Assembly: GCA_022709735.1 (NCBI GenBank)
Contig: JAKLIG010000001.1
Coordinates: forward strand, 128,586-192,585
Length of the DNA: 64,000 bases
Source of the DNA: Patescibacteria group bacterium
GTDB lineage: Bacteria; Patescibacteriota; Minisyncoccia; Moranbacterales; UBA2206
Reading direction: 5' to 3'
The translations under genes were made by a program, and so were the position numbers. The notes beneath the pieces are model-generated. The model was not told the DNA's origin, made no database searches, and worked only from the letters and a program-made list of their open reading frames with translations. Each line of letters starts with the position of its first letter. Position 1 is the first letter of the stretch. Shown here piece after piece: positions 6,186 to 25,784 of the stretch.

Positions 6186-7985
6186 ATGGAAATTCGAAAC
6201 ATTGCTATTATCGCGCATGTTGATCATGGCAAAACAACAATTACCGACGCTCTAATGAAACAAACCGGAATGGTGAGTGAAGAAGGAGCGACAATGGACA
6301 CAAACGCCCTCGAAAAAGAGCGCGGTATTACGATTTATGCTAAAAATGCTTGTCTTTTTTATAAAGATACGAAAATCAATATCGTAGACACTCCGGGGCA
6401 TGCTGATTTTGGAAGCGAAGTAGAAAGAGTTTTACGTTCAATTGACAGCGTGCTTTTGGTCGTTGACGCGCAAGAAGGCCCAATGCCACAAACTCGATTT
6501 GTGCTCAAAAAATCACTGGAGCTCGGACTTCGTCCGATTGTAGTAATAAACAAAATAGACAAACCTGCCGCTGATCCAGCCATGGCGCAAGAAAAAGTTT
6601 TTGAATTATTTTTAGATTTGGGCGCCAGCGACGAACAATTGGATTTTGAAACAATTTATACGATTGGAAAACAGGAGATTGCTAAAATGCATTTGGATGA
6701 TGAAAGCCAGAATATGAATCCGCTTTTGGATTTAGTTTTGGAAAAAGTTTCACCGGCTGATGCAAAAAAAGACATTCCTCTTCGCGCCCAGCCTTTCAAT
6801 TTGGGTTATGATAATTTTTTGGGGCGTCTCGCCATTCTTCGAATTTATGAAGGAACAATTAAAAACGGAAGCAATTTGTATCTTAAGAAAATAAATGGTG
6901 AGATAAAAAGTGGAAGGATAACTAAGCTTTTTAGTTTTCACGGAATGGAACGGCGAGAAATTGAAGAATCAATTGCTGGAGACATTGTGATGATGTCTGG
7001 TTTTCCGGATATTGAAATAGGCGATACGATTTGTGAAGATCAAAACCAAGAAATTTTACCGGCCATTTCAATTGATGAGCCGACCATTTCACTTAGATTT
7101 TTGGCGAACGATTCGCCCTTTTCCGGGAAAGACGGAAAATTTGTGACGACCAAACAAATCAGAGAAAGATTGGAAAAAGAATTGGAAATAAATGTTGGGC
7201 TAAAAATTGATTTTACTTCTTCGGAATTTTGGAAAGTTTATGGCCGAGGCGAACTTCACATCGCGATACTTTTGGAAAATATGCGACGCGAAGGTTATGA
7301 AATTCAGGTTTCGCAACCGCAGGTGATTATAAAAGATATTGATGGGATAAAATCAGAACCGTTTGAAGAAGCGACGATTGATGTTCCAACAGAAATGTCC
7401 GGTTCAATTATTGAAACGCTTGGGAAAAGAAAAGGAATTATGGTTGATATGCAGACGCATGGAAATATAACGCGAATGATTTTTGAAATTCCAACGCGCG
7501 GAATTTTGGGATATCGCGGACAATTTGTTATGGATACAAAAGGTCTTGGAATTATGTGTTCGCGCGTGATTGGATTTCGACCATACGCTGGAGAAATTTC
7601 CAAACGCGAAGTTGGTTCAATGATTTCGATGGCTTCCGGAAAAGCACTTGGTTTTTCATTGGCGAATCTTCAACAAAGAGGCACGCTTTATATTGGCCCT
7701 GGAATGGAAATTTATGAAGGCATGGTGATTGGCAATGTATCAAAAGGTGAGGATATGGCAGTCAACCCGACCAAAGGAAAGCAAATGAGTAACATGAGAT
7801 CATCTGGCGCCGATGAAGCGATTCATCTTGTCCCGCCGATGAATTTGAATATTGAACGAGGCTTGGAAATTATGGCGGAAGACGAATATCTTGAAATCAC
7901 TCCGCATTCGGTGCGACTTCGAAAAGAATTTTTGACGGAAGTTGATAGAAATCGCGCGGGGAGGAAAAAAAATAATAATTCTTGA
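6186..7985 (+). CDS. typA: Translational GTPase TypA/BipA
   Basis: AHVDHGKTT G1 motif, DTPGHADF G3, NKIDK G4, full-length 599 aa with EF-G-like C-terminal domains. Confidence 0.95.
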   Translation: MEIRNIAIIAHVDHGKTTITDALMKQTGMVSEEGATMDTNALEKERGITIYAKNACLFYKDTKINIVDTPGHADFGSEVERVLRSIDSVLLVVDAQEGPMPQTRFVLKKSLELGLRPIVVINKIDKPAADPAMAQEKVFELFLDLGASDEQLDFETIYTIGKQEIAKMHLDDESQNMNPLLDLVLEKVSPADAKKDIPLRAQPFNLGYDNFLGRLAILRIYEGTIKNGSNLYLKKINGEIKSGRITKLFSFHGMERREIEESIAGDIVMMSGFPDIEIGDTICEDQNQEILPAISIDEPTISLRFLANDSPFSGKDGKFVTTKQIRERLEKELEINVGLKIDFTSSEFWKVYGRGELHIAILLENMRREGYEIQVSQPQVIIKDIDGIKSEPFEEATIDVPTEMSGSIIETLGKRKGIMVDMQTHGNITRMIFEIPTRGILGYRGQFVMDTKGLGIMCSRVIGFRPYAGEISKREVGSMISMASGKALGFSLANLQQRGTLYIGPGMEIYEGMVIGNVSKGEDMAVNPTKGKQMSNMRSSGADEAIHLVPPMNLNIERGLEIMAEDEYLEITPHSVRLRKEFLTEVDRNRAGRKKNNNS

Positions 7986-8206: not shown

Positions 8207-8247
8207 AAAACTCGTTCAGCAGATATCTGCTGAACGAGTTTTTTTAT
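8207..8247 (+). terminator. Rho-independent terminator
   Basis: aaaactcgttcagcagatatctgctgaacgagttttttt: 13-bp perfect stem plus T-run. Confidence 0.8.
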
Positions 8248-8513: not shown

Positions 8514-8948
8514 ATGTTTATTGGCGAGTATCAACATTCTATTGATCCGAAAAAAAGATTGGCAGTGCCATCGAAGTTTCGAAGTGATTTGAAAAATAAA
8601 GTCGTGGTAACGAAAGGACTGGATAAGTGTCTCATCATCTATCCAATGAAAGTTTGGCAAGAACTGGCAGAAAAACTCGGAACACTTCCGATTGGAGAAT
8701 CCGCCACGCGAAGTTTTGTTCGTTCAATGCTAGCTGGCGCAGTGGATTGCGAGATTGACAAGCAAGGAAGAATTTTGATTCCAGATTTTTTGCGCGAATA
8801 TGCGGCGCTTGGCAAGAATGTCATCATCGCCGGAGTGTATAATCGCTTAGAAATTTGGGACGAAAAGAAATGGAATGGATACAAGAAGAATGCGGAAAAA
8901 AATACGGATGAAATTGCAGAACAACTGGGTAAATTGGGAGTATATTAG
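8514..8948 (+). CDS. mraZ: Transcriptional regulator MraZ
   Basis: MFIGEYQHSIDPKKRLAVPSKFR... two MraZ/SpoVT-AbrB repeats, first gene of dcw cluster. Confidence 0.9.
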   Translation: MFIGEYQHSIDPKKRLAVPSKFRSDLKNKVVVTKGLDKCLIIYPMKVWQELAEKLGTLPIGESATRSFVRSMLAGAVDCEIDKQGRILIPDFLREYAALGKNVIIAGVYNRLEIWDEKKWNGYKKNAEKNTDEIAEQLGKLGVY

Positions 8949-13898: not shown

Positions 13899-14549
13899 AT
13901 GGCGAAATTCAAAACACATATGGGCTGGGGAGTTTTTGTCGGAGTCGCTCTGGTTGTAGCCGGGTTGATTTATTCTATAATTTCCGGAATAGAATCAGCC
14001 ATCTGGATTTTTTCGGCCGTGCTCTTGGGTTCATTTCTTCCTGATCTTGATTTGGATGGCGGAGTTCCATTTCAAATTCTTTTCGGTCTTCTTGGGGCGG
14101 GATTTGCCGGGTTTATATTTTTTAACTTTTATCAGGAAGGGGAGCGGAGTTTGAAAATATTAATTTTAATTCCGGCGCTGACTTTTGTTGCAGTTCGTTT
14201 TATCGCTGGATATATTTTTGAAAAATTTACTCATCATCGAGGAATGTTCCATTCTATTCCGGCGGCCATTCTTTTTGGGCTTCTTACAATTTGGTTTTCA
14301 CATTTATTCAAAATTATCGAGGGCAAAGAGCTTGTTATTGGGGCATCAGTCGCCATCGGTTATATCGGGCATTTGATTTTAGACGAAATCTATTCCTCCA
14401 CTAATCTCAAGGGCTATTCGCTTCTTCCCAAACAATCTCTTGGAAGCGCGCTCAAATTTTATTCTGATTCTCGACTTTCCACCTTGCTCTTTTATTGTTT
14501 GATTTTTGCTCTCGCGCTCACACTTCCCGAAACGAGAGAATTTTTCTAA
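13899..14549 (+). CDS. Membrane-bound metal-dependent hydrolase (YdjM/DUF457 family)
   Basis: Polytopic; HHRGMFHS and GHLILDE His-rich motifs typical of DUF457. Confidence 0.5.
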   Translation: MAKFKTHMGWGVFVGVALVVAGLIYSIISGIESAIWIFSAVLLGSFLPDLDLDGGVPFQILFGLLGAGFAGFIFFNFYQEGERSLKILILIPALTFVAVRFIAGYIFEKFTHHRGMFHSIPAAILFGLLTIWFSHLFKIIEGKELVIGASVAIGYIGHLILDEIYSSTNLKGYSLLPKQSLGSALKFYSDSRLSTLLFYCLIFALALTLPETREFF

Positions 14550-14582
14550 AAAATGGTATAATATATTCAAATAAATTTATTT

Positions 14583-15095
14583 ATGAAAATATCACTTGAT
14601 ATTGAACTTGAAAAAGCTGTGCGAATTTTGGCAAAATATTTGTTGCCTTCTAAAGAAAATTCTAGGAAGCCAATTTTGATGCATGATTTGCGAGTCGGAA
14701 TGCATTTGTATGAAAATAATTATTCACACGATATTATTCTTGCGGGAGTGTTGCATGATGCTTTAGAATTCAGTGAAATTACAGAGCAAATGATTTCTGA
14801 AGAATTTGGTGAAAATGTTTTGCGTCTTGTAAAAGCGAATTCAAAAGATAGATCAATTGAAAATTCAGATGAGAGAATAGAAGAATTAATTAAAAGATGC
14901 GCTCAAACTGGCGAAGATGCTCTGATAGTGAAAGTAGCGGATACGCTGGATAGTTTCAAATATTATACAAAAACAAATAATCAATCCGAACTTGAATATT
15001 GTCGAAAAACAACCGGGGCGATTTTCAAATATAAGTCGGAAGATTACAAAGATCCGATATTCGAAAAACTTGAGGAGTGGATTAATAAATTATAA
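14583..15095 (+). CDS. HD-domain phosphohydrolase
   Basis: H..H...HD motif region LMHDLRVGMHLY...VLHDALE. Confidence 0.65.
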   Translation: MKISLDIELEKAVRILAKYLLPSKENSRKPILMHDLRVGMHLYENNYSHDIILAGVLHDALEFSEITEQMISEEFGENVLRLVKANSKDRSIENSDERIEELIKRCAQTGEDALIVKVADTLDSFKYYTKTNNQSELEYCRKTTGAIFKYKSEDYKDPIFEKLEEWINKL

Positions 15096-15123
15096 AAATT
15101 TAATTTAATCTAAAAATTATTTT

Positions 15124-15864
15124 ATGCGAAAAGAAGAAGTGAAAAAAATTGTAAAGGATAGTTATACGAAAATTGCCAAAGGAAGCGGTTGCTCCTGTTG
15201 CGGGGCAAAGAAGGAGCAGGAAAGAATTGCTCAGGAAATTGGCTATTCCAAAGAGGATATTGGAAAATTTTCTGAGGCGAACTTAGGATTGGGATGTGGA
15301 AATCCAGTGGCGATGGCAGAAATTAAAGAAGGCGATGTTGTTTTAGATTTGGGATCAGGCGCTGGGTTTGATTGTTTTTTAGCAGTTAGAAGAGTAGGAG
15401 AAATTGGAAAAGTAATTGGAGTAGATATGACAGAGGAAATGTTGAAAAAAGCCAAAACCAATGCTGAAAAATATGGATATAAAAATGTTGAATTTAAACT
15501 GGGTGAGATTGAAAATTTACCGGTGGAAAATAATTCTATAGACATAATAATTAGTAATTGCGTGATTAATTTGTCGCCCGACAAAGACAAAGTTTTTGAG
15601 GAATCTTTTAGGGTTTTGAAAACTGGAGGAAAAATGTTTGTTTCTGATATCGTTTTGCTTCAGGAACTTCCGGAGGAAATCAAAAATAATAAAGATCTTC
15701 TATCTGGTTGTGTGGCTGGCGCACTTTTAAAGGACAATTATATTTCCAAAATGAAAAAAGCTGGTTTTGAAATCGAAGTGCTTTCAGAAGACAAAGATAT
15801 TAGTAAAAAACAATATTCCAATATGCCTCTTGAAAGCTTAAAAATCAAAGCAGTTAAAAAATAA
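15124..15864 (+). CDS. arsM: ArsM-type arsenite S-adenosylmethionine methyltransferase-like protein
   Basis: [14 protein letters not shown] motif; [19 protein letters not shown] and SGCVAGA cysteine motifs matching ArsM catalytic Cys positions; N-terminal CSCCG. Confidence 0.55.
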
Positions 15865-15892
15865 AATTAATAATAATTAAAATAAAAAAATT

Positions 15893-16555
15893 ATGAGAAA
15901 ACTATTTTTGGACATTGAAACGCTTCCGGCGCATGAGGAAAATCACGAAATACTCAAATTTCTTTTTGACAAGAAAAAAGCCAAGAAAAATAAAAAAGAC
16001 GGATGCGAAGATGGCACTGATTTTGAACAATATCTTTTGGGCACTTCTTTTGACGGCGCTTATGGCCGAATTCTTTGTATTGCTTATGCAATTGATGACA
16101 AACCGGTCGAAGTTTTGAATGGCGACGGCGATGAAGCCCAGATGCTCGAAAAATTTTGGGAAATTGTAGATTCAATCAGTAAGCCAGCACAAAATCCGCA
16201 GTGGCCAGATTATGGCGTGCAATTTATCGGGCACAATGTGATGGATTTTGATTTGCGCTTTATTTATCAGCGATCAATTGTCAACAAAGTGAAGCCAGCT
16301 TATGAATTGTCATTTGCGAGGTATAGAAGTTATCCAATTTATGACACGATGAAAGAATGGGTGAAATGGGCGAATAATAATGTTGGATTGGAAACTTTGG
16401 CACTGGCGCTTGGTATTCCAACGCCCAAAGATGGAATTGACGGTTCGCAAGTTTATGATTTTTGGAAAGCTGGAAAAGCTAAAGAAATCTGCGAATATTG
16501 CAAAAGAGATGTCGAATGCACGCGGGAAGTCTACAAAAGAATGACATTTTACTAA
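15893..16555 (+). CDS. PolB-type 3'-5' exonuclease domain protein (RNase H-like fold)
   Basis: LDIETLP exo-I-like motif, GHNVMDFDLRFI exo-II-like, C-terminal YCKRDVE. Confidence 0.5.
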   Translation: MRKLFLDIETLPAHEENHEILKFLFDKKKAKKNKKDGCEDGTDFEQYLLGTSFDGAYGRILCIAYAIDDKPVEVLNGDGDEAQMLEKFWEIVDSISKPAQNPQWPDYGVQFIGHNVMDFDLRFIYQRSIVNKVKPAYELSFARYRSYPIYDTMKEWVKWANNNVGLETLALALGIPTPKDGIDGSQVYDFWKAGKAKEICEYCKRDVECTREVYKRMTFY

Positions 16556-16569
16556 AATAATTTTAATTT

Positions 16570-17172
16570 ATGATTTTCACGCATTGGTTAGTGATTGCTG
16601 GTGTAATAGTTGGTTTTGGAGGCTCCTTTAAATATATTCGTGATACATTGATTGGGGAAACAAAACCTAATCGAGTCTCTTGGCTTATGTGGTCGCTTGC
16701 CCCATTAATTAGTTTGGGGGCAGCTCTATCAAGCGGTGGCGATTTTTGGGCAAACATTCGCGTTTTTACTGCCGGATTTATTCCGCTTATAATTTTTATT
16801 ATATCTTTTGTTAATCCCAAGAGTTATTGGAAAATAACATTTTTTGATTTAGTATGTGGCGCTTGTTCTGCTGTAGCAATTATTATTTGGCTAGTTATTG
16901 ATTCTCCTCGGCTAGCAATTATTTTAGCACTTTTGGGCGATGGATTTGCTGCTTTTCCAACTATAATAAAGGCATGGAAATTTCCAGAAACTGAAACCGG
17001 GCTGACTTTCATAGCAGGGATAATAAGTGTTTTGCTTATACTTCCATCTATTCCGGTTTGGAATATTGAAAATTCTGCTTTTCAAATTTATCTTTTAATT
17101 GCAAATTTTTCTATAGCCATATCAATATATCGTAAAAAAATATTTGGATATTTTTTAGCAGATAAGTGTTAA
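16570..17172 (+). CDS. Polytopic membrane protein, unknown function
   Basis: 200 aa, 5-6 predicted TM helices. Confidence 0.5.
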   Translation: MIFTHWLVIAGVIVGFGGSFKYIRDTLIGETKPNRVSWLMWSLAPLISLGAALSSGGDFWANIRVFTAGFIPLIIFIISFVNPKSYWKITFFDLVCGACSAVAIIIWLVIDSPRLAIILALLGDGFAAFPTIIKAWKFPETETGLTFIAGIISVLLILPSIPVWNIENSAFQIYLLIANFSIAISIYRKKIFGYFLADKC

Positions 17173-17174
17173 TT

Positions 17175-17423
17175 ATGTATTATCTCTATATTCTCAAATG
17201 CGCTGACAAAACTTTATATACCGGAATTACTACGGACTTAGAAAGAAGAATTGTCGAACATAACAACACGAAACTTGGCGCAAAATATACCGCTTTTCGC
17301 CGACCAGTAAAATTGGTTTACTGCAAAAAATTCAAAAGTCGGTCGCTAGCTTCCAAAGAAGAAGCTAAAATTAAAAAATTGAGAAGAATTCAAAAGTTAG
17401 AATTAATTAAAAAAGCTAAATAA
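17175..17423 (+). CDS. GIY-YIG nuclease family protein (UPF0213/YhbQ-like)
   Basis: YYLYILKCADKTLYTGITTDLERRIVEHN GIY-YIG motif; ATG at 17175 chosen (track ORF starts at GTG 17166). Confidence 0.8.
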   Translation: MYYLYILKCADKTLYTGITTDLERRIVEHNNTKLGAKYTAFRRPVKLVYCKKFKSRSLASKEEAKIKKLRRIQKLELIKKAK

Positions 17424-17428
17424 AAAAT

Positions 17429-17824
17429 ATGAAAGCATATAATTGGTATTCGCAATTAATCAAACCGACCTGGTCTCCGCCAGCCTGGGTTTTTGGACCA
17501 GTCTGGACTTTTCTCTATGCGTTAATTGCCATTTCATTCGGAAAAGTATTGTGGATGTTTTTGAAAAAACAAATTCCTTTTTTGGTAATTTTGCCATTTA
17601 TTCTAAATCTTATTTTTAATTTTTCTTTTACTCCAATCCAATTTGGTTTGAAAAATAATCTTTTGGCAGCAGCAGATATTTTGCTAGTTCTTGGAACGCT
17701 TATTTGGGCGATGATTGCGATTTATCCTCATGCGCGTTGGATAACTTACATCCAAATTCCATATCTTCTTTGGGTAACATTCGCAACAGTTTTGCAACTT
17801 ACTATTACATATTTAAATAAGTAA
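17429..17824 (+). CDS. tspO: TspO/MBR family tryptophan-rich sensory protein
   Basis: LIKPTWSPPAWVFGPVWTFLY matches TspO consensus; 131 aa, multiple TM. Confidence 0.7.
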   Translation: MKAYNWYSQLIKPTWSPPAWVFGPVWTFLYALIAISFGKVLWMFLKKQIPFLVILPFILNLIFNFSFTPIQFGLKNNLLAAADILLVLGTLIWAMIAIYPHARWITYIQIPYLLWVTFATVLQLTITYLNK

Positions 17825-17965
17825 TTTTATTATGAAAAATTACGCTAAAGTCGGAGGAAAGAATGGGAAGCCGGCTTATCGGACGCCATCAAGTTTTTGT
17901 TATAAAAAAATTTAAAAATAAATAAAATAAAGCGCAAAATCAAATAATTATTAATTTTTAAAGTT

Positions 17966-18421
17966 ATGAATGAAGTAGAAATTTTTAATCATCTTTTTGA
18001 AATAGCAAAAAAATCGCATGATCCGCGCGGAGTAGTATCAGCATGTCTGATTAATGGGGATGAAATTATTACTTCATCGGCCAGCGCTGATGATGGAAAG
18101 CTTCATGCTGAAGAAATTGTTATTGAAAAAGGCAAAGAGGATATAACTAATTCGACAGTATTATATTCCACGCTTGAACCATGTAGCCAGAGAAAAAACA
18201 AAGAAATTATTGATTGTACGACAGTAATAATAAATAGCGGAATAAAGAATGTGATATTCGGGGCAAAAGATCCAGAACATAGTAGCAAAACGCATAAAAG
18301 ATTGGGAGAAAAAGGAATTTCGATTAGACAAACAACCAATCCGGATATTATAAAAAAATGCGCGCAAATTTTTAACGGCACAGTTTTAGAAAAAGATGTT
18401 AAATTAAAACCAGAAGATTAA
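17966..18421 (+). CDS. CMP/dCMP-type zinc deaminase domain protein
   Basis: HAEE ... LEPCSQR...C zinc-ligand pattern. Confidence 0.45.
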   Translation: MNEVEIFNHLFEIAKKSHDPRGVVSACLINGDEIITSSASADDGKLHAEEIVIEKGKEDITNSTVLYSTLEPCSQRKNKEIIDCTTVIINSGIKNVIFGAKDPEHSSKTHKRLGEKGISIRQTTNPDIIKKCAQIFNGTVLEKDVKLKPED

Positions 18422-18433
18422 TTGTAAAATAAC

Positions 18434-18465
18434 ATTCTCATATTCTGCAGAATGTCAGAATATTA
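18434..18465. repeat. Composite palindrome, ATTCTGCAGAAT core with flanking ATTCT/AGAAT half-sites (copy 1)
   Basis: cattctcatattctgcagaatgtcagaatatt; related copies at 21669-21694 and 22032-22071. Confidence 0.75.
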
Positions 18466-18477
18466 TTTTAAAATACT

Positions 18478-18582
18478 ATGAAAATTTTAATTGCGTTTTA
18501 TTCAAGAACCGAGACGACCAAGAAAGTCGGCGAGATGATTGCGGAAAAGTTTAAGGACGCAATTATTCCCCAACCTGCTTAA
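18478..18582 (+). pseudogene. Flavodoxin N-terminal fragment (34 codons) followed by terminator
   Basis: MKILIAFYSRTETTKKVGEMIAEKF matches flavodoxin/WrbA N-terminus but stops after 34 aa; hairpin aacctgc-ttaatt-gcaggtttttt at 18568-18596. Confidence 0.4.
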
Positions 18583-18645
18583 TTTGCAGGTTTTTTAAAA
18601 TTGTGGTGTAATAAAATAAGTAAAAAATTAAAATAAAAACCTGCT

Positions 18646-18993
18646 TTGGGCAAAAGTTTTTTGTTTATAAAATTTTTGCAGGAAGTTGGGGAGAAAAAAG
18701 GTATGTGTTCATATATAAATTGTTTTAGCGATTTATCAGCGCTAGTGTTTTTTTTGATTATTACTTTTATTATAGCAATGTTTGTTTTTTTTAAGTTTAA
18801 AAATTTGATTTTATCAATAACTTGCGCTTCCATAATAGTTAATTTATTTTTTATTCTTTTAACTCTTTCCAGATCGCTTATTTTTTTTGAATATCATGTT
18901 GAATGGTTTCAATACTTTTCTCTTATTTTTTGGCCAATAATAAATATTTATCTAATTATTAAATATTTCAAAAACAAAAATGAAAAACAATAA
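18646..18993 (+). CDS. Small membrane protein (3 TM), hypothetical
   Basis: 115-aa ORF overlapping start of downstream large gene; hydrophobic; competes with antisense ORF 18579-18833. Confidence 0.3.
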   Translation: MGKSFLFIKFLQEVGEKKGMCSYINCFSDLSALVFFLIITFIIAMFVFFKFKNLILSITCASIIVNLFFILLTLSRSLIFFEYHVEWFQYFSLIFWPIINIYLIIKYFKNKNEKQ

Positions 18994-21610
18994 AATAACG
19001 CTAGTTATATTTCTATCAATTCTAATTTCCCTAGCGCCTATCCCGCTAAAAAATTCATTAGTTTTTTCCGAAGAAAATTATACTGAAATAAGCGAAAACA
19101 TAGAAATCGTCGAATTAATGGAAATTCCTGTTGGAACAACTACGGTTATAAAAAAAGGTATAACTGTTTCCATGAATAATGCTTCAATCAAGATCGAAGG
19201 AAATTTAATTGTAAAAGGAACGCTAAATGATTTGGTAAAAATAAAAAAAACTGGTAATGATCCTTTTCACTTTATAGTTATGCCAGGCGGAAATTTAGAA
19301 ATGTCCAATGTGGAAGTGGACGGGGGCGGATCAGCTGTTTATCCTTGTGATGAAGAAAATCCGGAAATGGAAGCTATGCGGGGAGCAGTGGATGTGGTTG
19401 GGGGAAAATTCACCGGTCAAAATGTAAATTTTCATGATAATGTCGTTGCTGTTTCAATAGCAGGCAATGGTTCGTCAGTCAAGGTTAATCGTTCCAAATT
19501 TTTGAATAATTTTCAATATGAAGTTTTCCAAAGTGGCAATCCTAGTTTAGCCGATTTTCGTTATAATTGGTGGGGCAATCCAAATGGTCCAATTCAAAAT
19601 TGCGAGATATATAATGCTTGCTGGCCTATTTCTGGAAACGTCGATTCTTCTAGCTGGCTTTTGGAGCCGGACTTTAGGGACCCGGTGATTATTGTGCCGG
19701 GAATTTTGGGATCATGGAAAATAACCGATGGCGGGAAATGGAAACTTGATCCTATCTTCAAAACCTATGATACTTTGTATAAAACTTTCAAAGAAAATGG
19801 ATATGAAGAAGGCAAAGATTTATTTGCTTTTCCGTATCAATGGCGCGATAGTAATGTCAATAATGCTGTTTTGTTAAAACAAAAAATTCAAGAAATAAAA
19901 ACAGCAAATAATTGGCCAAAAGTTGACATCGTAGCTCATTCAATGGGTGGGCTTTTGACAAGAGAATATATTGAATCAGAAAATTATCAAGACGATGTCG
20001 ACCAGCTAGTTTTACTTGGAACTCCCAACGCTGGAGCGCCTGAAGATTATTTAATGTGGGAAGGAGGAAAAAATCCTCCTTCTAGTTCAGCTATAGCAGA
20101 TTTATTCTTTAAGCTTATTTTTAAGCAAGAAGCTAAAGAGGCGGGTTTTAGTAGTATTTTTGAGTATTTGCATAAACAGCCGATAAAATCTGTTCAAGAA
20201 CTTCTTCCTAATTATGATTATTTATATGATATTGAATCGAAAAAAATGCGATCATACGCGAATAATGAACATTATCCCAAAAATATTTTTTTAGATAAGT
20301 TGAATCTTATCGAGAATGCCAGAAAAATGAATTCAGTAATAGTGACGAACATCACAGGAAAGTTGTCGGAAAATAAGACAATAAAAAAAATTAAAGTTGA
20401 AAAACCTTCGGTTGATGAAAATTCCCTTTGGGCGCATGGATATCCTAAAGGTTTTGATTCGCTTTCCGGAGATCACGGTTTAGAATATGGAGCGGGGGAT
20501 GGTACTGTTCCAAAAGAGTCATCGGAGAATATTCTTTCAGATGAACAAATAGAAACAAACTTTGCTCATTCTGATCTACCAGGAAAAACAGCGAAAACTG
20601 TTTTCAAAGAATTGACTGGAAATTCTGTTCAAGAAGAAGTTCCTTTTATTGGAACATATGAAATTCTTATTCTTTCTGCTTTCTCTCCCATCGATATTCA
20701 AATAATTTCTCCTTCCGGAAAAAAGGTTGGGAAAAATTTTGAAACAGGAGGAATATACGATGAAATTGACGGCGCTTATTATACCGGATTTGATACAGAC
20801 AATGAATTTTTGACTATTCCTAATCCGGAAGACGGAGAATATAAAATTCTAACGGAAGGGACGGGGGATGGCGAATATAAAATTGAAGCGACGAAAATTT
20901 CCGAAGATGAAAATAATCCGGAAAATGTTGCGGAATCAATAGTTAGCATGACCGGAACAGCCGAAGATGGAGTGCAAGAAGAAAAAACCGTAGAAGTTTC
21001 CGGTAATGAAGTAACGAGTGGCGGAGATCAATATATTGTGGGACCTAAGATCAATATTGTTTCTCCAAAAGAAAAAATATATTTAAATAACCAAATAATG
21101 AGAATACTATATTTCATAGAAGGTGATATATTTTTAACAAGTAAAGTAGAAAAAAAATTATATTATGATGGAAAAGAACTTAAAGATTCCAAAATAAATT
21201 TATATCTTGAGTCTATTGGCGAACATGTTGTGAAAATTACGGCCAAAGACGAAGCGCAAAATTTATCCGAAAAAGAAGTGAGATTTCAGCTCACAACCGA
21301 CATCGATACATTTATTAAGAATCTAGATTATTATCAAAAGAATAATCTAATCAAGAATTATCCTGGGAAAATGGCGATAAAAAAACCGCTTAATGAAATA
21401 AAAAATGATTTCAGAAAGATAGAATCGATAAAAAAGAAGAAAAAGTTAAGCGCGGGAGAAAAAGAAATGCTGATTGGCGTTGTAAAAGAATCAATTAATT
21501 CCAAAATCGATCTTCTCATTGAATATGTTGAAAAAAATGAAAATCACGCCATTTCAAAAAAGGGACAAATTTTGTTTATTGAACTTCTAAATGAAATCCG
21601 ACCGGAATAG
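18980..21610 (+). CDS. Secreted multidomain alpha/beta-hydrolase (lipase/LCAT/PGAP1-like) with N-terminal parallel beta-helix region
   Basis: N-terminal signal/anchor; repetitive beta-helix-like segment; DPVIIVPGILGSW ... AHSMGG nucleophile elbow; C-terminal beta-sandwich-like region. Confidence 0.5.
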   Translation: MKNNKITLVIFLSILISLAPIPLKNSLVFSEENYTEISENIEIVELMEIPVGTTTVIKKGITVSMNNASIKIEGNLIVKGTLNDLVKIKKTGNDPFHFIVMPGGNLEMSNVEVDGGGSAVYPCDEENPEMEAMRGAVDVVGGKFTGQNVNFHDNVVAVSIAGNGSSVKVNRSKFLNNFQYEVFQSGNPSLADFRYNWWGNPNGPIQNCEIYNACWPISGNVDSSSWLLEPDFRDPVIIVPGILGSWKITDGGKWKLDPIFKTYDTLYKTFKENGYEEGKDLFAFPYQWRDSNVNNAVLLKQKIQEIKTANNWPKVDIVAHSMGGLLTREYIESENYQDDVDQLVLLGTPNAGAPEDYLMWEGGKNPPSSSAIADLFFKLIFKQEAKEAGFSSIFEYLHKQPIKSVQELLPNYDYLYDIESKKMRSYANNEHYPKNIFLDKLNLIENARKMNSVIVTNITGKLSENKTIKKIKVEKPSVDENSLWAHGYPKGFDSLSGDHGLEYGAGDGTVPKESSENILSDEQIETNFAHSDLPGKTAKTVFKELTGNSVQEEVPFIGTYEILILSAFSPIDIQIISPSGKKVGKNFETGGIYDEIDGAYYTGFDTDNEFLTIPNPEDGEYKILTEGTGDGEYKIEATKISEDENNPENVAESIVSMTGTAEDGVQEEKTVEVSGNEVTSGGDQYIVGPKINIVSPKEKIYLNNQIMRILYFIEGDIFLTSKVEKKLYYDGKELKDSKINLYLESIGEHVVKITAKDEAQNLSEKEVRFQLTTDIDTFIKNLDYYQKNNLIKNYPGKMAIKKPLNEIKNDFRKIESIKKKKKLSAGEKEMLIGVVKESINSKIDLLIEYVEKNENHAISKKGQILFIELLNEIRPE

Positions 21611-21668
21611 ATACTAGCGTTATATCGATAAATGTTATCTTCACAATTAAAATTTATTATATGCAACG

Positions 21669-21694
21669 TTCTCATATTCTGCAGAATATGAGAA
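21669..21694. repeat. 26-bp perfect palindrome TTCTCATATTCTGCAGAATATGAGAA (copy 2)
   Basis: Perfect palindrome 55 bp after hydrolase stop and about 50 bp before ArsR-like gene start. Confidence 0.8.
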
Positions 21695-21744
21695 TATTAC
21701 TATGTTGAATATTTAAATTATTAATAAAAATAAATTACAAAAAA

Positions 21745-22044
21745 ATGCTTGCTAAAAAACGCAAATTTCAAAAAAATGTCAAAACCCCAAAACAAATGGA
21801 GCGACATTTGAAAGGCGTGGCTAACCATAGGCGGATTGAAATACTTTTTCTAATTGCTAGAGAAGAAGGAATCACATTAGATGGTATTTGCGAAGATTTA
21901 AGCTGTAATGTTAAAACTATTTCTGAACATACTAAAAAATTAGTTCAGGCGGGATTGGTAAATAAAAACTACAAAGGTAGGGAAGTGAAGCATTCTCTTT
22001 CTCCATACGGCAAACGCTTTCTAAAATTCATACAAACATTCTGA
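21745..22044 (+). CDS. ArsR/SmtB-family winged-helix transcriptional regulator
   Basis: HRRIEILFLI ... TISEHTKKLVQAGLV HTH pattern; 99 aa. Confidence 0.6.
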   Translation: MLAKKRKFQKNVKTPKQMERHLKGVANHRRIEILFLIAREEGITLDGICEDLSCNVKTISEHTKKLVQAGLVNKNYKGREVKHSLSPYGKRFLKFIQTF

Positions 22045-22071
22045 CATTCTGCAGAATATCAGAATGTTTGT
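22032..22071. repeat. 40-bp near-perfect palindrome ACAAACATTCTGACATTCTGCAGAATATCAGAATGTTTGT (copy 3) overlapping regulator stop codon
   Basis: 13-bp perfect outer arms plus ATTCTGCAGAAT core. Confidence 0.8.
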
Positions 22072-22186
22072 ATATTTAAATTATTGTTTAAATCTTTAAA
22101 TGAATAATAGAATTGTTATTTTATAAAAGTGGTTTTTTGGGAAAATATCGGGTATAATATGGTTAATAAATATAACACTTAAATTT

Positions 22187-23530: not shown

Positions 23531-23559
23531 AAATTAGCTTATTTCAGCGTTTTTACCTT

Positions 23560-23579
23560 CGCATCAAAATTTTGATGCG
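23560..23579 (+). terminator. Palindromic hairpin CGCATCAAAATTTTGATGCG (terminator-like)
   Basis: 20-bp perfect palindrome 30 bp after lipoprotein stop, followed by gggtttacttttt. Confidence 0.5.
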
Positions 23580-23697
23580 GGGGTTTACTTTTTGCCCTCT
23601 TGATACTATACTGATATCAGCAAGTTATCGAAAATATTGTCCTTTGAAACGAATACTTTTAGGAAGCTCAAAAAACTACACTAAGGAGGTGAATAAT

Positions 23698-24046: not shown

Positions 24047-24649
24047 ATGTCAGAAATATTAGAAAGTCTTTTTGGTTCCAAAGAACGCGCTCGGCTTTTG
24101 CGCTTTTTTCTGCAAAATCCAGAACCGATTTTCAGTTTTTCCGAAATCGTCAAAAAAAATATGCTTAAATCCGGCAAAGCCAGAAATGAGCTGGCCAATT
24201 TAGCCAAGATAAGATTTGTTCTTAGAAGAACCAAAGGCGGAAAAACTTTTTATCAGCTGAACCAAGATTTCAATTTTTATCCGGAACTAAAAAATTTAAT
24301 TGCTAAATCGAATGTTTATCCGCAATGCCAAAGTCTTTCAAAAGTCGGAAAAATCGGAAACATCAAACTCGCTGTGATTAGCGGAGTGTTTATCAATTAT
24401 GCTAAAAGCAAAGCGGATATGATAATTGTTGGAGACGCAGTGAGCAAGGCCAAGCTCAAAAATCTTATGAGCGGATTGGAAGCGGAAATCGGAAAAGAAA
24501 TAAATTTTATGCTTATGACGATGGATGAATTCAAATACCGCCTCAATATGCTGGATAAATTTATTTTGGAATTTTTGGAAGGTCCACACGAGGAAGTGAT
24601 TAATAAAATTCAGGGACTGAAAAGATTTATCGCGCAGAGAAAATTGTAA
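24047..24649 (+). CDS. Hypothetical protein with N-terminal winged-helix-like region
   Basis: ERARLLRFFLQNPEPIFSFSEIVKK resembles wHTH; remainder unrecognised. Confidence 0.35.
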   Translation: MSEILESLFGSKERARLLRFFLQNPEPIFSFSEIVKKNMLKSGKARNELANLAKIRFVLRRTKGGKTFYQLNQDFNFYPELKNLIAKSNVYPQCQSLSKVGKIGNIKLAVISGVFINYAKSKADMIIVGDAVSKAKLKNLMSGLEAEIGKEINFMLMTMDEFKYRLNMLDKFILEFLEGPHEEVINKIQGLKRFIAQRKL

Positions 24650-24695: not shown

Positions 24696-25784
24696 ATGCT
24701 TTATACACTTTTAACTATACTAATTTTAATAATTGCAGTTTTGCTGTTTTTTGTTTTTGATATGCGCAAAAAAATGGATGGAAGCAAAGAAAATGAAAAA
24801 TCAGTGGCGATTTTGGAGCGTTTGTCTATGATGGCTGAACAAAATCGCGATCTTCGCCGGACGATAGATTCCAAGCTTTCTGAAACTCATCGCGCGACCC
24901 AAGAACAATTGGGCCAATCAATGAGAGTGGCGCAGGGGATTGCCAATCAGTCGGTCAAATCAATTTCTGATATAACTGAAAAACTCACTAAGCTTGAAGA
25001 AACAAACAAGCAGGTGGTCAATTTTTCGGCGCAACTTCAAAATTTGCAGGATATTTTGAAAAATCCAAAGCAAAGGGGAGTGCTGGGCGAATATTTTTTG
25101 GAAGAAACTTTGAAAAATGTTTTGCCGCCAAATTCATACCAAATGCAATATGCTTTCAAGGACGGTTCGATTGTGGACGCGGTGGTTTTTGTTAAAAAGA
25201 AAATTATTCCGGTTGATTCCAAATTTTCCTTGGAAAATTATGAAAAAATTATAAACTGCAAAGACATTATAGAAAAAGAAAAACTAGAAAAACTTTTCAA
25301 GCAAGATTTGAAAAATAGAATTGACGAAACTTCAAAATATATCAAGCCGGAAGAAGACACGATGGATTTTGCTTTTATGTTTATTCCATCCGAAGCGATT
25401 TATTATGATCTTCTGATAAACAAAATTGGAGCAGTGCAAGTTAATACGCGCGATCTCATTGAATATGCTTTTCGCGACAAAAAAGTCATCATTGTTTCCC
25501 CAACCTCATTTTTAGCTTATCTTCAAACTGTGCTTCAGGGGCTTCGGGCGCTTCAGATCGAAGAAAGCGCCAAGCAGATTCGAACTAATGTTGAAAAACT
25601 AGGAAAACACCTGATTTCTTATGAAGAATTTTTGAAAAAAATGGGCAATAGTTTGGGAACAACTGTGAGTCATTTCAATTCAGCTCACAAGGAATTTGAA
25701 AAAATCGACAAAGATATTGCGAGAATCACGGAAGGAGAAAAAAATATCGAGCCGTTAGTTTTGGAAAAGCCTAAAGAGGAGTAA
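24696..25784 (+). CDS. rmuC: DNA recombination protein RmuC
   Basis: N-terminal TM plus coiled coil, GEYFLEETLKNVLP and FAFMFIPSEAIYYDLL RmuC-type motifs. Confidence 0.7.
   Translation: MLYTLLTILILIIAVLLFFVFDMRKKMDGSKENEKSVAILERLSMMAEQNRDLRRTIDSKLSETHRATQEQLGQSMRVAQGIANQSVKSISDITEKLTKLEETNKQVVNFSAQLQNLQDILKNPKQRGVLGEYFLEETLKNVLPPNSYQMQYAFKDGSIVDAVVFVKKKIIPVDSKFSLENYEKIINCKDIIEKEKLEKLFKQDLKNRIDETSKYIKPEEDTMDFAFMFIPSEAIYYDLLINKIGAVQVNTRDLIEYAFRDKKVIIVSPTSFLAYLQTVLQGLRALQIEESAKQIRTNVEKLGKHLISYEEFLKKMGNSLGTTVSHFNSAHKEFEKIDKDIARITEGEKNIEPLVLEKPKEE

Follow-up and report, generated by a model that had tools for sequence, protein, structure and literature searches.

A winged-helix protein and a palindromic site, probably its operator, recur together across Patescibacteria

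Three palindromes in a 64-kb stretch of DNA from a Patescibacteria group bacterium (contig JAKLIG010000001.1, 64,000 nucleotides; here the window, meaning the whole stretch that was analysed) surround the gene of a 99-aa winged-helix protein of the ArsR/SmtB-HlyU type, and we consider it probable that they are the cognate operators of this adjacent protein. Comparison with other genomes, on which this reading rests, indicates that regulator and site form an ancient, Patescibacteria-wide pair, in whose subtypes residue 65 of the protein matches the centre of the predicted operator. Patescibacteria, also known as the candidate phyla radiation (CPR), hold a large share of bacterial diversity, are mostly uncultivated and possess very few regulators, and to our knowledge almost nothing is known about transcriptional control in them.

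Results

Three palindromes around a single-copy gene

The window has three copies of the 12-mer ATTCTGCAGAAT, at 18442, 21676 and 22046, whereas shuffled sequences have 0.47 on average and 2 of 100 shuffles reach three. Searched with at most one mismatch, the longer composite ATTCT-N3-ATTCTGCAGAAT-N3-AGAAT gives three matches in the 64 kb and none in 100 shuffles; those at 18434-18461 (site 1) and 22038-22065 (site 3) are exact, and that at 21668-21695 (site 2) differs by one base, its first A being replaced by G. A search that leaves the centre free and tolerates up to five mismatches returns the same three real sites and no others, the next candidates in the window, at five or more mismatches, being at shuffle level. 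The site family is sharply bimodal in the window, with three real sites on one side and background candidates on the other. All three fall inside 3.6 kb of the 64 kb, around the regulator gene, which is present in the window as a single copy (P ~0.009 for random placement).

Site 1 occupies a short intergenic gap, as extra copies typically do in other genomes, starting 13 nt past the stop codon of a deaminase gene and ending 16 nt before the ATG of a flavodoxin-like remnant; it forms part of an imperfect palindrome (18421-18474, 86% complementary) and its spacers are a mixture of the types seen in site 2 and in site 3. At site 2 the palindrome is a perfect 26-mer (21669-21694), and the site ends 49 nt before the regulator ATG; site 3 overlaps the last two codons and the stop codon of the regulator gene (ACA TTC TGA; stop 22042-22044). 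An earlier note on this DNA had proposed that the palindromes share an ATTCT-n3-core-n3-AGAAT architecture, which the composite search and its empty shuffles bear out, and had located the three sites, all of which exist. Its coordinates are exact for site 2; the string that it quoted for site 1 begins at 18433 rather than 18434, and the palindrome that it rightly saw over the regulator stop codon is 44 bp long, at 22030-22073, instead of 40 bp at 22032-22071.

The motif across Patescibacteria

A species-level contig scan, with one genome per species and the pattern TTCT-N3-ATTCTGCAGAAT-N3-AGAA (that is, CTGCAG-centred copies only), returned matches in at least 120 contigs. Nearly all of the matches listed are Patescibacteria/CPR metagenome-assembled genomes (MAGs) of many lineages, with labels that include Saccharibacteria, many Parcubacteria/Paceibacterota groups, Berkelbacteria, Doudnabacteria and Daviesbacteria; a few bins among them carry non-CPR labels, taken here as deposited. 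The sites found in this way have the logo aAACATTCT-nAc-ATTCT-GC-AGAAT-gTn-AGAATGTTt, with two 8-bp direct repeats in each arm, and the consensus of the element is (AACATTCT)2-NN-(AGAATGTT)2. Twenty base positions are kept in sequence phylum-wide and the pentamers are invariant, while the central dinucleotide is free in loci retrieved through the regulator, where GC, TG/CA, TA and CG all occur. Judged from these alignments, the real motif is ATTCT-N3-ATTCT-NN-AGAAT-N3-AGAAT, a 13-2-13 arrangement of four pentamers. This keeps the nested, 12-2-12-like half-site geometry first suggested for the palindromes; the ATTCTGCAGAAT core suggested with it is one lineage variant of the 13-2-13 site and not a general core, because the central CTGCAG is specific to one regulator subtype.

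No match to the motif was found in 2.9 million viral contigs, and in PHROGs the regulator matches only generic 'transcriptional regulator' entries; an origin in phages or mobile elements was rejected on these grounds. The sites match no Rfam family, only sub-threshold miRNA-hairpin look-alikes appearing, which likewise removes a known RNA family from consideration. Copies number three in the 64 kb here and about 1 per 14 kb even close to regulators, a density far too low for a DNA-uptake sequence. No description of the site or the system was found in the searchable literature, in which subscription papers are thinly covered, including with the exact 12-mer and the peptide ILQNVRM as queries.

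Some loci have peculiarities of their own. At L001:3400-3470, four tandem ATCATTCT/AACATTCT repeats stand on one arm in an iteron-like manner, and in CAZVCF01 (L034, L053, L064, L107) a longer repeat, specific to that genome and rich in CATTTTGATTTTTGCATTTTGAATTT, encloses the element. Two contigs whose MAGs are assigned to different candidate phyla, Paceibacterota and Daviesbacteria (L037 and L069), are identical over a methyltransferase gene and the motif-bearing region upstream of it, an indication of faulty binning, of contamination or of very recent transfer.

Association and covariation of protein and site

Protein and site were sampled from both directions: 120 loci of 8 kb came from the contig scan (motif-anchored), and 80 metagenome loci were fetched by protein similarity alone (regulator-anchored). 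A homologue of the regulator, 65-83% identical, is present in 41 of the 120 motif-anchored loci, where chance would place a single-copy 300-bp gene of a ~1-Mb genome in less than 1% of 8-kb loci, and nearly all of these homologues have an upstream site together with a site that overlaps or just follows the stop codon. In the other direction, an upstream site is found in 67 of 75 testable regulator-anchored loci (89%), a 3' site, on or just after the stop codon, in 67 of 77 (87%), and both in 59 of 72 (82%). The geometry of the 3' site is fixed, in that it overlaps ..ACA TTC TAA/TGA at offset -3 from the last sense codon in most genomes.

The centre of the site also covaries with the protein. 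Regulators with R65 are flanked by sites centred on TG/CA (76 sites), TA (13), CG (5) or AT (1), and never on GC; GC-centred flanking sites accompany K65 (66), S65 (31) or A65 (7), with few exceptions, and the K65 of the window regulator fits its own GC-centred flanking sites. Spacer triplets, for their part, track helix position 61 (Q61/E61) and variants of the wing. A control within one genome is provided by a single 557-kb contig (Ga0265296_1000011; L203, L204, 158-192 kb) that encodes two regulator paralogues separated by 29 kb: on either side of P0018 (K65) stands a CTGCAG-centred site (..ATTCTGCAGAAA..), whereas P0025 (R65) lies between two identical CTTGAG-centred sites (ATTCCGACATTCTTGAGAATGTCGGAAT). 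This pair of paralogues is the strongest evidence that the protein would read the sites as duplex DNA, since any hairpin would have the covarying bases in its loop. With the two-way association, the covariation and the control from one genome, the suggestion in the earlier note that the palindromes are operators of the adjacent ArsR-type protein gains strong support in a wider form.

The reading frame of the R65 paralogue P0025 is three codons longer (..TF RHS*), and its stop codon is the TGA in the operator centre CTTGAG.

The regulator and its predicted fold

The 99-aa protein matches Pfam HTH_5 (PF01022; E = 1.2e-8, 35.2 bits, cut-off 22) and passes the MarR, HTH_27 and HTH_24 models as well, and we therefore place it at the level of the winged-helix clan. 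Its AlphaFold model (predicted local distance difference test score 89.9; helices 15-23, 25-39, 45-52, 56-68 and 87-98, strands 72-77 and 80-85) has an a1-a2-a3-aR-wing (b1-b2)-a5 fold with a C-terminal dimerisation helix as in the ArsR/SmtB family. Foldseek neighbours of the model are ArsR (6j05), HlyU (3jth), CadC (1u2w), SqrR (6o8k) and SmtB (1smt), along with MarR proteins; by sequence the nearest solved structures are HlyU (3jth, E = 7.5e-4, the best match), the MarR-family regulator 8za5, CadC and ArsR. The recognition helix reads N55-x-K-T-I-S-E-H-T-K-K65-L and the wing G78-R-x-V-x-H-x-L-S-P-Y-G. Homologues at 65-83% identity number 1419, and identity in this range over more than 1400 homologues is unusually high conservation for a putative transcription factor. 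In alignments of 47-120 homologues the invariant residues cluster in the recognition helix (N55, K57, T58, H62) and the wing (G78, H83, L85-G89); an invariant recognition helix and wing match the invariant DNA pentamers, and were therefore counted in favour of a pairing of protein and site.

Cys49 is present in 39% and Cys54 in 54% of the homologues, and neither an alpha-3 CXC motif nor an alpha-5 His/Asp/Glu cluster was found in the homologue alignment, so that a thiolate or a5 metal site is not a feature of the family. Against the NCBIfam metalloregulator model NF033788 the protein scores 41 bits, below the cut-off of 55. It has no recognisable sensor site and hence is predicted not to be a metal sensor; its previous description as a metal(loid)-responsive regulator is at odds with the cysteine frequencies, the lack of an a5 His/Asp site and the sub-threshold score. 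PADLOC yields weak matches of the regulator to the winged-helix domain of Csa3/CARF proteins and none for the 876-aa hydrolase encoded upstream of it, and a defence system was ruled out accordingly.

Positions of the sites and the genes beside them

The upstream site lies 10-100 nt before the start codon of the regulator gene, and several genomes have, 1-20 nt beyond it, an extended -10-like element, an arrangement in which the site would cover the -35/spacer region. Upstream sites are often a symmetric weaker variant (ATTCC...GGAAT) and 3' sites more often have the consensus sequence, a pattern that would fit tuned autoregulation. A resemblance of TGTnAGAAT to an extended -10 element was noticed, but a promoter role was not substantiated. 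The gene downstream of the regulator is co-directional with it in 92 of 108 loci (85%, against ~72% expected) and often starts within 10-60 nt; the 3' site is probably an operator of this next gene or a roadblock between cistrons. Since the neighbour is convergent in 15% of loci, neither would be the only role of the 3' site.

Elsewhere, genes for PgeF (39% identity), a 580-aa zinc-ribbon protein (42%) and acylphosphatase (48%) have a site just 5' of their start codons in distant genomes, and TspO, a DUF559 nuclease-like protein and SNase recur as neighbours of the regulator. A coherent regulon was considered and rejected: among 72 start-facing neighbours no Pfam family has more than two members (best 25 of 83 families). 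If anything links the neighbours, it is a loose leaning towards the handling of nucleotides and DNA (PgeF, NUDIX, deaminase, Nth, ExoVII, SNase, DUF559, ComEC, DinB and His-phosphatase, plus TspO).

Many CPR genes (L065:2335-2375, L114:3402-3440, L106, L082, L062) have a TATAAT-like element, often TGnTATAAT, 6-7 nt before the ATG; TATAAT so near the ATG suggests widespread leaderless or near-leaderless transcripts in CPR genomes.

Self-complementarity and copies inside genes

Several findings weigh against the reading of the palindromes as operators of the adjacent protein. The palindromes are 26-52 bp long (mode 34), and self-complementarity runs past the conserved core into non-conserved flanks, where the sites pair at 82.2% of positions and have 354 double-sided changes, shuffles having 74.9% and 198 and 0 of 500 reaching the observed values; this flank complementarity suggests that a hairpin or cruciform was also selected for, or that the sites are copied by some mechanism. 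The covariation of protein and site could be inflated by shared ancestry of the loci. No clear peak marks a -10 element at a constant spacing from the motif, and start codons lie anywhere from 0 to more than 100 nt from the site. By crude gene calls, 22 of 111 sites have a convergent and 13 a divergent context, against a background of 14% each, and the neighbouring genes are functionally heterogeneous. Deep inside genes lie 21 of 352 sites (about 3-6%), 16 of the 21 in the phase that encodes HSxILQNxRM. A simple promoter operator is insufficient as an account of the element because convergent sites are not depleted and because of these deep copies. Tolerance of G-U pairs has no sense-strand bias (51 versus 60), and the pairing pattern argues for a property at the DNA level, namely a symmetric duplex or cruciform, and not for an mRNA hairpin.

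At least ten of the deep copies are in recognisable conserved genes, among them those for YchF (twice), TsaD, MnmA, PrmC, an FAD oxidase and glycosyltransferases. The strict peptide pattern is matched by 10 of 120 TsaD homologues, two of these having I or T in the final positions; at least two loops that look intact, HSNILQNVRM (P0199) and HSSVLQNVRM (P0136), escape it. By eye, ~25 of the 120 carry decayed versions in one variable loop, the baseline form of which is short, and loops with the element exceed those lacking it by 7-12 residues; in YchF the length is unchanged, the element standing in place of other sequence. Two tsaD genes with the same insertion type (L121 and L122), one of which has the symmetric centre CTTAAG, keep all 20 specified bases at a third-codon identity of random level (31%; range 25-40%). 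With the 20 bases kept despite saturated synonymous sites, at least some intragenic copies therefore appear to be maintained by selection on DNA.

Direct-repeat flanks indicative of target-site duplication do not exceed chance at any of the boundaries tested; a single nominal excess, of 2-nt repeats at the core boundary (27 versus 12 expected), was put down, by eye, to TA flanks that are self-complementary. Among the window proteins scanned (13.9-25.8 kb) no transposase, recombinase or integrase was found, other loci not having been searched systematically. The TsaD loop between HMEGH and SGGHT holds other recurrent inserts too in homologues P0121-P0240, for example RLENNKFQISNIKLP and RRESIKSQVSNDKQIYKLENIKLP, and seems to be an insertion hot spot in CPR tsaD.

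Other genes and features of the window

The features of the window are collected in Table 1. Pfam agrees with the gene identities given in the earlier note, namely HTH_5/ArsR for the 99-aa protein, an LCAT/lipase-type hydrolase for the 876-aa protein and Methyltransf_31 for the gene at 15124-15864. The unit that the earlier note had drawn from the flavodoxin remnant, a membrane protein, the hydrolase and the regulator fares less well, as conservation is confined to the bracket that sites 2 and 3 form around the regulator. As a neighbour the hydrolase lacks such conservation, other loci holding just a 95-aa hydrolase-core match (L120) and a homologue ~4 kb from a site (L077), and a terminator at 18572-18596 separates site 1 from the hydrolase operon; comparison of loci thus rules out the hydrolase as a conserved partner. 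The link once drawn to the ArsM-like gene is unsupported too, no site adjoining that gene in the window. With canonical terminators at 18572-18596 and 23555-23584, the genome uses ordinary terminators alongside the ATTCT palindromes.

By its position only, the flavodoxin-like remnant would be a member of the regulon; no flavodoxin or deaminase homologues were found beside sites in the other loci fetched. The gene of the 101-aa membrane protein lies 122 nt past the core of site 3 and 114 nt past its extended palindrome, and L157 encodes a homologue with 43% identity downstream of its own regulator.

Table 1. Sites, genes and terminators in the window (positions are those of the 64-kb stretch)
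Feature	Position	Strand	Description
ArsM-like methyltransferase	15124-15864		Pfam Methyltransf_31; CC/CVxGA cysteine motifs; 6 kb upstream
Site 1	18426..18469	none	core 18434-18461 = ATTCTCAT ATTCT GC AGAAT GTCAGAAT
Flavodoxin-like remnant, 34 aa	18478..18582	+	gene or former gene directly downstream of site 1; from translation
Intrinsic terminator	18572-18596		AACCTGC-TTAATTT-GCAGGTT-TTTT; canonical GC-containing stem and T run, after the flavodoxin-like remnant
Hydrolase, 876 aa, LCAT/lipase-type alpha/beta	18980..21610	+	Pfam; neighbour of the regulator, not a conserved part of the system
Site 2	21668..21695	none	GTTCTCAT ATTCT GC AGAAT ATGAGAAT; predicted upstream operator of the regulator gene
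Regulator, 99 aa, ArsR/SmtB-HlyU type	21745..22044	+	Pfam, homologues, AlphaFold
Site 3	22030..22073	none	44-bp palindrome with one mismatch; core 22038-22065
Membrane protein, 101 aa	22187..22492	+	co-directional; candidate target of site 3
Intrinsic terminator	23555-23584		ACCTTCGCATCAAAATTTTGATGCGGGGGT-TTACTTTTT; canonical GC-containing stem and T run

Upstream of site 1, positions 13899-18421 hold small accessory genes for YdjM, HD_4 (an HD domain), the ArsM-like methyltransferase, a PolB-type 3'-5' exonuclease, GIY-YIG, TspO and a dCMP/cytidine deaminase, which resemble the kinds of gene found beside the motif in other genomes and have the same nucleotide- and DNA-handling flavour. A perfect 36-bp palindrome at 8207-8242 (AAAACTCGTTCAGCAGATATCTGCTGAACGAGTTTT), unrelated in sequence to the ATTCT sites, lies in the gap between the end of one open reading frame at 7985 and the start of another at 8514; an A-run, a stem and a T-run give it the appearance of a bidirectional terminator, although it could be another operator. 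The 200-aa protein encoded at 24047-24649 has matches to PDC-M05A, a candidate defence family in PADLOC (E = 7.7e-26), and weakly to DUF7342; the next gene, at 24696-25784, is that of RmuC (E = 3.7e-51), which has been connected with recombination at short inverted repeats.

Discussion

For the operator reading we infer a mechanism that takes in physical binding and its stoichiometry, repression rather than activation, roadblock action and a role for the intragenic copies. Each site offers four ATTCT half-sites, two direct repeats 8 bp apart per arm, and, by analogy with ArsR/SmtB proteins on 12-2-12 operators, would probably be bound by two dimers. On the upstream site, 49 nt before the ATG, the protein would regulate its own gene by occupying the promoter or -35 region. 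The stop-codon site would affect the sequence beyond the regulator gene, serving the following gene, which mostly runs in the same direction, as its operator or seating a protein roadblock to read-through. Site 1 would add a further site to the regulon, lying at the promoter of a flavodoxin-like gene that has since decayed.

By this analogy the system would work like an autoregulated repressor of the ArsR/SmtB superfamily with its operator, minus the metal site. The ArsR/SmtB repressors (SmtB, CzrA, CadC, ArsR) have the same winged-helix fold and Pfam family and are likewise small proteins with an operator beside their own gene, which would imply autoregulation here too. Their 12-2-12 operators are likewise composite inverted repeats, of ~26-28 bp, with a 2-bp centre and nested half-sites, and that of SmtB is reported to bind two dimers. 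Unlike these metalloregulators, the protein has no conserved metal or metalloid ligands and stays below the metalloregulator cut-off; it differs also in the second predicted operator on its own stop codon, in near-invariance phylum-wide, in sites at unrelated genes and in coding regions, and in paralogous subtypes that appear to have different centre specificity. The best comparison, still by analogy, is with non-metal members of the ArsR family such as HlyU of Vibrio, the closest solved structure by sequence and likewise without a metal site. HlyU binds an inverted-repeat/palindrome element able to form a cruciform, and attenuates that cruciform (PMC10325908). The sites described here, known from their sequence alone, resemble that target in being 26-52-bp palindromes with apparently selected self-complementarity; unlike the present protein, HlyU is an anti-silencer at a few virulence promoters in one genus, no H-NS context is known for the present protein, and identity to HlyU is ~23-25%.

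In the HrcA-CIRCE, LexA-box and NrdR-box systems an inverted repeat stays nearly unchanged over large phylogenetic distance and the repressor's own operon carries the site. The present pair is like HrcA-CIRCE in evolutionary reach, with a different protein family; unlike the coherent heat-shock regulon of CIRCE, its neighbours are heterogeneous and some sites are intragenic. CcpA at cre sites and CodY repress by roadblock, the protein on high-affinity palindromic sites in coding sequence or between cistrons stopping the elongating polymerase. Such an effect would fit the stop-codon site and the copies in tsaD, ychF, mnmA and prmC; unlike cre boxes, the sites here are much longer and more exact.

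Several features recall instead a dispersed, self-propagating palindromic repeat, akin to repetitive extragenic palindromic (REP) sequences and REPINs or to Rickettsia palindromic elements (RPEs), with the winged-helix gene as its associated factor, in the manner of the REP-associated tyrosine transposases (RAYTs), and regulation as a secondary matter; we regard this as unlikely. As with REP and RAYT, short palindromes are dispersed in intergenic gaps, whatever the gene orientation and beside heterogeneous genes, and the associated gene is flanked by two copies. That gene, however, encodes a winged-helix DNA-binding domain of 90-100 aa without a catalytic motif, not an HUH Y1 transposase, and three copies in 64 kb is a low number beside the tens to hundreds of extragenic REP copies per genome. 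In-frame copies in tsaD, ychF, mnmA, prmC and other conserved genes, most in the same phase, are reminiscent of RPEs, and the lengthened TsaD loop with its decayed versions fits an insertion; against this, the element is ~34 bp long and phylum-wide where RPEs are 100-150 bp and species-specific, YchF shows no change in length, and the tsaD copies, intact despite saturated synonymous sites, appear to be under purifying selection and point to function, not decay. Copies in the same genome share flanks beyond the core (L043, L005/L115 and the CAZVCF01 loci), and the variable length of the palindromes, with arms complementary in non-conserved sequence, is also what copying would leave. Yet neither a target-site duplication, as expected of miniature inverted-repeat transposable elements, nor a transposase or recombinase nearby in the window was found, the sequence is conserved across the phylum, unlike that of fast-evolving REPs, and absent from the viral contigs, and the covariation of specificity indicates that the protein reads the sites.

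We give little credence to the idea that the sites are non-transcriptional, whether as parS/matS-like anchor points or as att-like cassette boundaries bound by the winged-helix protein or a recombinase. In Bacillus subtilis, parS lies within the 3' end of spo0J, the gene of its own binding protein, just as a site here lies inside the 3' end of the regulator gene, and the sites occur inside coding regions and regardless of gene orientation; GC skew, however, rises steadily, with a dip only within 2-6 kb, and has no switch at 18-22 kb, so that the sites are not at an origin or terminus. A replication terminator like that of RTP was discarded on the same grounds, the element moreover being a symmetric palindrome. 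Gene-site-gene-site arrays in L094, L114 and L115, neighbours that are often of accessory type and the mixed spacers of site 1 would suit recombination sites, but solo in-frame copies inside genes are not cassette boundaries and, unlike integron attC sites, these come without an integrase among the window proteins scanned. Sites immediately 5' of the same gene families in distant genomes and the excess of co-directional neighbours downstream of the regulator also speak for a transcriptional role. Very little credence goes to ordinary intrinsic (bidirectional) terminators or mRNA-stabilising hairpins after gene ends, even though every window site follows a gene end, the sites as RNA fold at -12.5 to -26.8 kcal/mol (z-scores -3.4 to -9.2), the consensus is flanked by A-rich and T-rich bases (aAAACA...TGTTTt), pairing covariation is present, and a simple terminator scan flags site 3 (that site only, with a weak tail). 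Twenty positions conserved in sequence phylum-wide are never seen in structure-only hairpins, the stems are AT-rich, most sites have no run of five or more T, and sites also occur between divergent genes, upstream of start codons and inside genes; with the lack of a G-U strand bias and of an Rfam match, the covariation of would-be loop nucleotides with a protein residue and the canonical terminators present in the same window, a generic terminator family was rejected. Copies do lie at unrelated genes and even inside genes, a spread that the earlier note had associated with generic terminators, but they track the regulator family. Least probable of all is a metal(loid)-responsive ArsR repressor that governs the flavodoxin remnant, membrane protein and secreted hydrolase and is linked to the ArsM-like methyltransferase. 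The ArsR Pfam match, ArsR and CadC among the nearest solved structures, the ArsM-like gene 6 kb upstream and a site at Methyltransf_31/11 genes in one other sequence (L037 = L069) lend it some colour; it is opposed by the missing ligands and sub-threshold score, by the unconserved and separately terminated hydrolase and the ArsM-like gene without a site, and by the finding of no arsenic-resistance genes among the families of start-facing neighbours (best 25 of 83) or the ten targets scanned individually.

If the palindromes are operators of the winged-helix protein, a further step can be imagined, which we put forward as speculative and improbable: the 34-bp sites would have been copied to new places, including in-frame in the essential translation genes tsaD, ychF, mnmA and prmC, and then selected, so that a single tiny protein could throttle housekeeping genes through roadblock or cruciform binding as a global growth/dormancy switch of these ultra-small symbionts, with paralogues of orthogonal centre specificity (K65/GC versus R65/TG) as separate channels. 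Were this true, copied-and-kept sites would make up a new class, a dispersed palindromic element paired with a non-enzymatic DNA-binding protein. In-frame copies kept in these four genes are rare and bear on how binding sites spread and on roadblock regulation. A pair with a readable code, residue 65 against operator centre, would offer a testable entry from sequence to a phylum-wide regulon, and may provide an orthogonal repressor/operator toolkit for the emerging genetics of Saccharibacteria.

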